This document shows positions 1 through 1,115 of a stretch of DNA of 1,116 bases, in pieces. The stretch lies in NCBI GenBank assembly GCA_000004985.1, contig GG739550.1. One strand, written 5' to 3'. Made by a program: the position numbers and the translations under genes. The stretch's first letter is position 1. Each line of letters opens with the position of its first letter. This stretch comes from Naegleria gruberi. Taxonomy: Eukaryota. The notes under the pieces are model-generated. The model made no database searches. It was given only the letters and a program-made list of their open reading frames with translations, and was not told where the DNA came from.

Positions 1-20
1 GATCCCTATTCTTATTACTA

Positions 21-108
21 CACTACGAGCCAAGCGGTTTAACCAGCAGCCTCCACTTGTATTCTAATTACAGCTCGACGATATTTTGTGAGTGGTTGGC
101 TCGTAGTG
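21..108. repeat. 13-bp perfect inverted repeat (21-33 cactacgagccaa / 96-108 ttggctcgtagtg), 62-nt spacer; 15/15 with one mismatch
   Basis: Direct base-by-base comparison of the reverse complement. Composition here is fairly balanced, so a 13-mer inverted match within about 90 bp is unlikely by chance. It lies just 3' of the PPR relic stop at 138. Confidence 0.5.
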
Positions 109-124
109 ATAGTTTAGTGGTTGG
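73..124. repeat. Imperfect tandem duplication of a ~26-nt unit (73-98 gctcgacgatattttgtgagtggttg / 99-124 gctcgtagtgatagtttagtggttgg). The 9-mer agtggttgg is exact at 91-99 and 116-124
   Basis: Manual alignment gives about 75% identity with small indels. The second unit carries the right arm of the inverted repeat above. A third motif-like copy, gctcgacgat, sits at 632-641 inside the pseudogene and is an exact 10-mer match to 73-82. Confidence 0.4.
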
Positions 125-137
125 AATTGAAACGTGC

Positions 138-749
138 CTAGAAATAATCAACCACAAGAACAAGTGCCATTTCTAAAGTGGTGAACTCTACTTGCATCGG
201 TTAGAATAATTTCTCTTTTTCTTAGCTTTGAGCTCTCTGATCACAACTTGTATCCTGTTTGAAGCCAGCTTGCTCCATCTCTTTGGATAGTTTGTCTAAT
301 TCCTCATAAATTTCTTTTTTCATTTCATGATTTTTCTCTTCACAAACAAAGGAGTGGACTTTTCCATTTACAGTAATAAAACTTCTTCCAGGCTCTTTGG
401 TAACTCCTCTTTTCTCCATTAGTAAACGTATGTGGTTTCTCTTTTCCATTAATCCTTTCGAAGAATAAATTGGATAATAGTAATGTCTACAATATTCAAA
501 GGATTGCAATGTGGTGGTGTTAAAACAACAATTTAAGGAGAATCCAAATAATGCGCTTTTGTGGTTTTAAAGAGTAAAAAGACTACAGCACCACAGGTTC
601 CCAAGTTGTCTCCAACCTCAGTACTGATGTGGCTCGACGATGCTTAACTTCTCAAATCGGACGGGATGAGGTGCATTCATCGTGATATGGCCGTAGCCAT
701 TCAATACCTTAATCTGCCTCCTTTCAACAATCTCGGGAAAAGATAAAAT
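138..749 (-). pseudogene. PLS-class PPR protein (E1-like / E2 / E+ / decayed DYW deaminase tail) gene fragment, probably a pseudogene
   Basis: Seen in sequence, minus strand. (1) 222-509 translates to …LLMEKRGVTKEPGRSFITVNGKVHSFVCEEKNHEMKKEIYEELDKLSKEMEQAGFKQDTS. From memory this closely matches the E2/E+ consensus of plant PLS-PPR editing factors (~ VRKLMKERGVKKEPGCSWIEVNNKVHEFVAGDKSHPQSKEIYAKLEELSKRMKEAGYVPDT). (2) After the TAA at 222-224, the frame shifted by +2 (240-151) reads SESSKLRKREIILTDASRVHHFRNGTCSCG. This matches the DYW-domain C-terminus (…ISKIxGREIIVRDxNRFHHFKDGxCSCGDYW). It is followed by TGA at 148-150. (3) One extra T (GGT-T-GAT, around 150) displaces the terminal GAT TAT TTC TAG (D-Y-F-stop, 149-138) back into the original frame. 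(4) About 45-50 residues expected between …PDT and the CxxCH region, including the HSE and CGDCH zinc motifs, are absent. The junction is around 243-251. (5) In the ORF frame, 621-737 reads PEIVERRQIKVLNGYGHITMNAPHPVRFEKLSIVEPHQY. This is a weaker E1-like match (…ALLGACRIHGNxELGExAAEKLLELEPxNxGxY). It is cut by TGA at 618-620 and TAA at 567-569. (6) There is no P/L/S repeat array upstream: sequence beyond 750 is AT-rich with stops in all frames. Support is strong for 138-509 and weaker for 510-749. Confidence 0.65.
222..509 (-). CDS. Longest intact frame inside the PPR relic; encodes the E2 + E+ motifs only (95 codons as listed in the ORF track). Probably not an independent functional gene
   Basis: This is the ORF-track entry. 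Its listed first residue 'M' is actually a TTG codon (plus 507-509 = caa). So there is no ATG at the listed start. The first in-frame ATG is at 449-447, which would give MEKRNHIRLLMEKRGV…, 75 aa. The frame is closed upstream by TAA at 567-569. It ends at TAA 222-224, immediately before the shifted DYW remnant. The motif match to PPR E2/E+ is strong. Whether it functions as a stand-alone product is unsupported. Confidence 0.45.
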   Translation of the reverse strand: MQSFEYCRHYYYPIYSSKGLMEKRNHIRLLMEKRGVTKEPGRSFITVNGKVHSFVCEEKNHEMKKEIYEELDKLSKEMEQAGFKQDTSCDQRAQS

Positions 750-875: not shown

Positions 876-1115
876 TCAATTATTATTTCCAAATTCCGTA
901 AAAAGATATGAGTCTAGACTTTTCAGTGCATTTACAATATGTGTGATTGTAAGAGAAACTACCAATTTCGTTCTTCCTAAAGTTAAAATCGTTGTATTAC
1001 GATATGAATCTAACTGTAAATCAGGCGGCAACAATATTGGCAATATTAAGCAACATACAAAGAATCCAAATAAATCGGTTTGAACTCTTGATAAAGTTAC
1101 GGTATTGAAGAAACA
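876..1115 (-). CDS. Edge-truncated open reading frame (79 codons + TGA), unknown product; possible 3' exon or 3' end of a gene continuing beyond the window
   Basis: Manual translation of the minus strand from 1115 gives CFFNTVTLSRVQTDLFGFFVCCLILPILLPPDLQLDSYRNTTILTLGRTKLVVSLTITHIVNALKSLDSYLFTEFGNNN, ending at TGA (plus 876-878 = tca). Seventy-nine stop-free codons is unusual for AT-rich plant non-coding DNA; I estimate chance around 0.3% per frame and start point. No start codon or splice site can be assigned, and I do not recognise the family. The L/I/F/T-rich composition is also what AT-rich non-coding sequence would produce, so the call rests mainly on frame length. Confidence 0.3.
   Translation of the reverse strand, partial: CFFNTVTLSRVQTDLFGFFVCCLILPILLPPDLQLDSYRNTTILTLGRTKLVVSLTITHIVNALKSLDSYLFTEFGNNN

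Follow-up and report, generated by a model that had tools for sequence, protein, structure and literature searches.

The window, by which we mean the entire 1,116-nt stretch of DNA analyzed here, carries on its minus strand the remains of the 3' end of a gene for a PLS-class PPR-DYW RNA-editing factor. These remains, referred to below as the relic, very likely represent an ordinary pseudogene with no function left. Three lesions are visible. The PPR tract is missing in its entirety, as is the first half of the E motif, with an unrelated spacer and an intact 5S rRNA gene found upstream instead; a net deletion of 154 nt removes the HxE...CxxC deaminase centre and shifts the reading frame; and a single T inserted between CSCG and DYF creates a stop codon. 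A sequence-only reading had placed a decayed DYW-type PPR gene here. Partial Pfam matches, together with profile HMM matches to a head and a tail segment in two minus-strand frames, bear this out.

A PPR-DYW remnant in two reading frames

The head of the relic (246-473, minus strand, like all parts of the relic), with weak similarity perhaps extending to about 497, comprises the second half of the E motif, at about 375-470, together with the PG box KEPGRSFITVNGKVHSF (348-392) and the E+ motif (276-359), and ends in ...AGFKQDTS. Its frame (ORF 509-222) reads ...YYYPIYSSKGLMEKRNHIRLLMEKRGVTKEPGRSFITVNGKVHSFVCEEKNHEMKKEIYEELDKLSKEMEQAGFKQDTS and then, just as had been described from the letters, CDQRAQS, a frameshifted read-through closed by a premature TAA at 222-224; up to this stop, the head frame is ...KEPGRSFITVNGKVHSFVCEEKNHEMKKEIYEELDKLSKEMEQAGFKQDTSCDQRAQS. 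The C-terminal tail of the DYW domain, SKLRKREIILTDASRVHHFRNGTCSCG (151-231), recognized by both Pfam and a custom profile, occupies a different frame. This second minus-strand frame begins after a TGA at 243-241, continues as SESSKLRKREIILTDASRVHHFRNGTCSCG and ends at a TGA at 150-148; between the two stops it corresponds to SES-SKLRKREIILTDASRVHHFRNGTCSCG. Beyond it, nt 138-149 hold the terminal DYF triplet (141-149) followed by TAG (138-140), the gene's original stop.

The DNA at the end of the tail is GGT-T-GAT-TAT-TTC-TAG, and removal of one T yields G-D-Y-F-stop. Direct reading of GGT-T-GAT places the extra T at 150, with 151 equally good; an insertion near 150, separating CSCG from DYF-stop, had been expected. 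The extra T makes the TGA (150-148) directly after CSCG and returns DYF to the head frame. The retained tail amounts to 87 nt, plus 9 nt for DYF, in agreement with the earlier estimate that about 90 nt of the DYW 3' end are kept in another frame. With two frame changes and stops at 222-224, 241-243 and 148-150, the relic is without an uninterrupted reading frame. Its longest ORF starting with ATG is 75 aa, and its 95-codon ORF has no ATG ahead of residue 21.

Profile searches recovered the same segments. Pfam matched the E+ motif over 28 of 28 positions (E = 9.6e-6; 25.7 bits, cut-off 24), the E motif only in part (profile positions 31-62 of 63, at 19.1 bits, below the 27.3 cut-off, with positions 1-30 missing), and the DYW_deaminase family at positions 64-93 of 93 alone, that is, the last 30 (43.5 bits, E = 2.8e-11). 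A custom profile HMM was built from 159 intact C-termini and used to scan all six frames of the window; it matched the head with E = 4.9e-25 (nt 473-216) and the tail with E = 6.5e-12 (nt 231-145, HMM positions 146-174). HMM positions 14 to about 88 map to nt 473 to about 246, and an extension of this alignment to position 100 across a low-complexity EKEK stretch is regarded as spurious. Using the contiguous 95-aa ORF as query, an exhaustive protein search returned 686 matches at E <= 0.001. A stitched pseudo-protein gave no matches in a word-indexed protein search, and none of three ORF variants from the window (75, 95 and 65 aa) had an exact match on record.

Intact relatives

The best match is P0001, a 765-aa PPR-E-E+-DYW protein encoded on a 14.8-kb metagenome contig (L001), which is 58% identical to the relic in the head and 67% in the tail; in tblastn against the window, P0001 matched the head at E = 8.6e-27 and the tail at E = 1.7e-10. 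It is followed by P0165, from an ENA metagenome, by P0005 (Willaertia magna KAL9655006, 813 aa; 51% head, 63% tail) and by P0018 (Naegleria gruberi XP_002679496, 799 aa; 41% head, 73% tail). Identity of the tail with intact relatives is 60-73%. P0001, P0005 and P0018 are full PPR-DYW proteins in which approximately 600 residues of PLS repeats precede the E motif, and the short gene call P0165 (locus L015) has a PPR-rich gene call immediately upstream. At the nucleotide level, blastn aligned window positions 139-235 with L001 7297-7202 at 72% and positions 248-419 with L001 7035-6864 at 68%; the match to L015 was 80% over 104 nt.

Two observations concern the reference loci themselves. On L015 (432-1941), gene calling divides the P0165 gene into two overlapping parts, one covering the PPR tract (432-1373) and the other E/E+/DYW (1366-1941). 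This PPR-DYW gene thus contains a frameshift or a sequencing error, and it may be another decaying copy. On L001, positions 1-7832 hold tightly packed, intronless eukaryotic genes, including one for a 1228-aa RNA polymerase II Rpb2, a gene density that fits a compact protist genome.

The relatives also clarify the end of the protein. At the position of the extra T, L001 reads GGG GAT TAC TTT TAA, without the insertion. The DYF triplet had been taken for a decay variant, a view we abandon because the closest intact relative, P0001, itself ends in ...KCSCGDYF. N. gruberi XP_002679496 ends in GDFF and others in DYY or NFF; DYF is native to the clade and not a mark of decay.

Loss of the deaminase centre

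Between the S codon at 246-248 and the S of SKL at 229-231, the window has 14 nt, compared with 168 nt (56 codons) in P0001 and its contig L001. These 56 codons, WVTRDMNEDEKKELLCKHSEKIAIAYGLISTPAGTPLTLHKNLRVCGDCHEATKMI, include both HSE and CGDCH. A second, independent reference, L015, also has 168 nt at this junction. The net loss of 154 nt takes out HxE and CxxC, as had been proposed for the catalytic core, and, being 3n+1, explains the frame change between head and tail. DNA alignment against L001 and L015 left a 14-nt junction remainder, TGTGATCAGAGAGC (232-245), which could match either the GDCHEA or the KMI side, the two not being separable at about 70% nucleotide identity. The deletion junction is mapped within nt 232-248, with end points fixed only to about 15 nt; the earlier prediction of 243-251 was close. 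HMM positions ~89-145, which contain HSE and CGDCH, had no match in the six frames of the window (other matches had E > 2), and the deaminase centre HxE(x)nCxxC is absent from all six. The sequence-only reading would have been undermined had nt 138-240 lacked DYW similarity or had the missing segment lain elsewhere in the window. The similarity is real, and the six-frame HMM scan located the segment nowhere else.

Errors of assembly or sequencing deserve consideration at this point: the record might be a chimera joined at the repeated 5S gene, and its frameshifts might be mistakes in an intact gene. The record, just 1116 nt long, begins with GATCC and has the repeated 5S gene at its centre; such a contig could be chimeric. 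Sequencing often introduces single-base indels, and the one inserted T could be an error of this kind. However, a net loss of 154 nt from the best conserved part of the domain cannot be a base-calling error, and even in a chimera the 5S gene would still stand where the E motif and PPR tract belong. Substitutions at conserved positions (see below) also point to real decay. As such, we regard an artefact as a highly improbable source of the relic.

Truncation on the 5' side

Similarity to the PPR family ends at about nt 473-497. A very permissive tblastn search (word size 2, E up to 10) that used three full-length relatives as queries found no PPR repeats in the window: the best match to a PPR tract, with E = 0.13, lies inside the relic, and nothing upstream of the 5S gene fell below E = 0.7. 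Pfam likewise found no PPR motif in the window ORFs. The boundary of homology is abrupt on this side, approximately 100 nt from the 5S gene, which occupies the place expected for the PPR tract. The intervening spacer, from the relic to the 5S terminator (474-579, minus strand), has no PPR-family similarity by tblastn or HMM; it is here that the former gene is cut off on its 5' side. Given that the PPR tract and the deaminase centre are both missing, the relic is truncated at both ends of its functional parts.

The sequence-only reading had left a choice between a DYW-to-E-type truncation route and straightforward pseudogenization. The latter is upheld here. The former fails because an E-type editing factor still needs a PPR tract and the window is without one; half of the E motif is also missing. 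A more specific version of the E-type idea, in which the relic would be a transitional but still functional E/E+-type factor that has lost its deaminase and recruits a DYW domain in trans, can appeal to an intact E+ motif and PG box, to a frame free of stops over 95 codons, and to the existence in plants of E+-type proteins that use DYW partners in trans. Yet without a PPR tract such a factor would have no RNA-recognition module, its E motif would lack the first half (Pfam 31-62 of 63 only), and its ORF would have no ATG before residue 21. Moreover, the 5S gene and its terminator stand just ~70 nt upstream of this ORF, and the conserved positions are eroded, 31 of 44 being kept. We consider a working factor of this kind extremely unlikely, and return to an ordinary pseudogene as the preferred explanation. 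The relic, as read from its sequence, has no part predicted to bind RNA or deaminate cytidine, and the fragment is probably not expressed.

A dispersed 5S rRNA gene beside the relic

A full-length 5S rRNA gene (580-698), which like the relic is on the minus strand, lies ~100 nt upstream of it and matches Rfam RF00001 over model positions 1-120 of 120, with 105.4 bits against a gathering score of 38, high posterior probabilities throughout and all helices present. A T-run, TTTT (576-579), directly follows its 3' end and is succeeded by the motif TTTTACTCTTT; this terminator is approximately 70 nt ahead of the relic's ORF. The gene looks like a working, separately transcribed Pol III gene. It was the only feature found in an Rfam scan of the window at E <= 1.

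Scanning metagenomes with a 32-mer of the 5S gene identified 13 loci. One of these, L006 (Ga0247722_10036048), differs from the window by a single base across the gene (blastn, 99.2% over 124 nt including flanking bases), and its flanks are unrelated to those of the window. The other 5S loci are 77-85% identical to the window 5S, and the one-base difference from L006 therefore implies a close relative. At L002-L013, including L006, the 5S genes are single-copy with unique flanks, indicating that they are dispersed and not arranged in tandem arrays. The window gene is thus of the eukaryotic nuclear 5S type (RF00001), with its full model, helices and T-run, and of the dispersed kind; it is a separate Pol III gene and not part of the PPR relic. 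In several contigs, TTTTACT(C)TTT occurs right after the 5S gene (window 569-579), in organisms with 5S genes that are only ~80% identical. A tandem 5S array with a 522-nt period was considered for the window and rejected: the window end (1101-1116) is unlike the 5S 3' end. Searches of the literature found nothing relevant on PPR pseudogenes within 5S spacers or on dispersed 5S genes in Naegleria.

The proximity of the two genes raises the question of how the relic came to lie there. Possibly there was never a full gene at this site, and a 3' piece of a PPR-DYW paralogue was copied or brought in by a rearrangement associated with 5S gene dispersal and then decayed. The abrupt 5' homology boundary ~100 nt from the 5S gene and the dispersed, uniquely flanked 5S singletons of the group, seen across the 13 loci, are in keeping with such an event. 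So is an imperfect direct repeat of about 37 nt (523-559 and 1048-1081; start-to-start 522 nt, with an exact 13-mer, AGAATCCAAATAA) that flanks the 5S gene together with the AT-rich region upstream of it, and whose score was reached by 3 of 1000 shuffles. However, the repeat regions were picked post hoc and have a self-BLAST E-value of only 0.07. By tblastn, none of the 13 related 5S loci has PPR sequence beside the 5S gene, and upstream of the window 5S there is no continuation of the PPR gene. We judge this origin rather doubtful; it is in any case a variant of the pseudogene explanation and offers no alternative function. More doubtful still is that a ~520-nt segment carrying the 5S gene and its upstream region between the direct repeats landed in or beside a PPR-DYW gene and destroyed it, which we think improbable. 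The repeat is a lead, not a finding.

Probable host

An implicit plant framing in the sequence-only reading is probably wrong. The nearest named PPR-DYW matches are from Willaertia magna and Naegleria gruberi. The 5S marker points the same way: adjoining the nearly identical 5S gene of L006 is an intronless gene for a 361-aa hydrolase whose nearest named matches are Willaertia magna (52%) and Naegleria lovaniensis (58%). On this indirect evidence the window is very probably not plant DNA, and a nuclear origin in a heterolobosean amoeba of the Naegleria/Willaertia group is likely. The window 5S sequence is also presumably not of streptophyte type. Bdelloid rotifers, in which DYW genes are numerous (PMC13386178), were considered and rejected as a source: rotifer DYW proteins score well below the environmental, Willaertia and Naegleria sequences, and the 5S-linked marker indicates Heterolobosea.

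The window has several further features. Positions 17-33 and 96-113, just downstream of the relic's stop, can form a 17-bp long-range stem with 13 nt perfectly complementary and ~62 nt enclosed. Its fold has z-scores of -4.2 (minus strand) and -4.7 (plus strand), and there is no Rfam match; the stem could represent either a small inverted-repeat element or some structured RNA. An ORF at 3-176 (plus strand, 58 codons), open to the window end, converges on and overlaps the relic's tail. Another, at 879-1115 (minus strand, 79 codons), is also open to the window end and encodes a hydrophobic stretch, LFGFFVCCLILPILL. Pfam gave no match for the four flanking ORFs that reach the window ends, and these two could be either chance frames or terminal parts of neighbouring genes. 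The first five nucleotides, GATCC (1-5), resemble a BamHI or Sau3AI-type cloning end. A scan for tRNAs in the window found none, and a scan for bacterial-type promoters and terminators was uninformative.

State of decay

Of the 44 columns with at least 70% conservation across the 159 intact proteins, 31 are retained in the relic, compared with 36-42 in its nearest intact relatives. Positions that are usually fixed have changed in SNIYA (N to P), VRD (R to T) and RFHHF (F to V). Neither the head nor the tail has an internal stop, and the chance of this is ~5e-4 for 95 codons at the base composition of the window. The freedom from internal stops suggests that inactivation was not ancient. It appears to have been relatively recent, with relaxed constraint probably acting for a limited time.

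Set against five defining features of a functional PPR-DYW factor, the relic shows two: E/E+ motifs with a PG box (the E motif being partial) and an HxxF...CxC-DYW-like tail (out of frame, with DYF split off). It lacks the other three, having no PPR tract, no deaminase centre and no intact ORF. The PPR tract and complete E motif required of the E/E+ subclass are likewise not found.

Comparison with known PPR proteins

Heterolobosean DYW-type PPR proteins are plant-like mitochondrial C-to-U RNA editing factors, a family thought to have been transferred horizontally from early land plants. Their E, PG-box, E+ and DYW-tail regions are homologous to those of the relic, and they share with it a non-canonical terminal aromatic (DYF/DFF). 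By descent the relic is one of this family. It differs in that the PPR tract and the HxE/CxxC centre are missing and the frame changes twice, and it would be unable to edit.

Plant E/E+ PPR proteins are editing factors without a DYW domain, thought to derive from DYW-type genes by C-terminal truncation. Like them, the relic has a frame that ends soon after the E+ motif and has lost the DYW core. Plant E/E+ proteins, however, keep a long PLS tract and a complete E motif, neither of which the relic has, and unlike them the relic keeps a DYW-tail remnant out of frame. Plant DYW1, a DYW protein without PPRs, offers another point of resemblance, as the relic is also short, has no PPR tract and retains some E+/DYW sequence. 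Yet DYW1-type proteins keep an intact catalytic core, precisely what the relic has lost, and the relatives of the relic carry PPR tracts, unlike DYW1-type proteins. The relic belongs neither with the E/E+-type factors nor with the PPR-less proteins of the DYW1 kind.

Expanded PPR families commonly include pseudogenes, and only the non-plant host and the 5S neighbour make this one mildly unusual. Naegleria gruberi has 11 DYW-type genes and Acrasis kona 12, against two confirmed editing sites per species (PMC4202320). These numbers are consistent with gene turnover in the family. The window adds one dead copy to this small heterolobosean PPR-DYW family, which fits a birth-and-death picture and carries little weight alone. 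It also corrects a plant-centred reading and shows DYF as a tail variant native to these proteins. The relic's position beside a dispersed 5S rRNA gene is the sole lead that may be worth following. Should a 5S-carrying segment indeed have landed here, dispersed heterolobosean 5S genes would act as mobile units, breaking host genes or taking fragments of them along.
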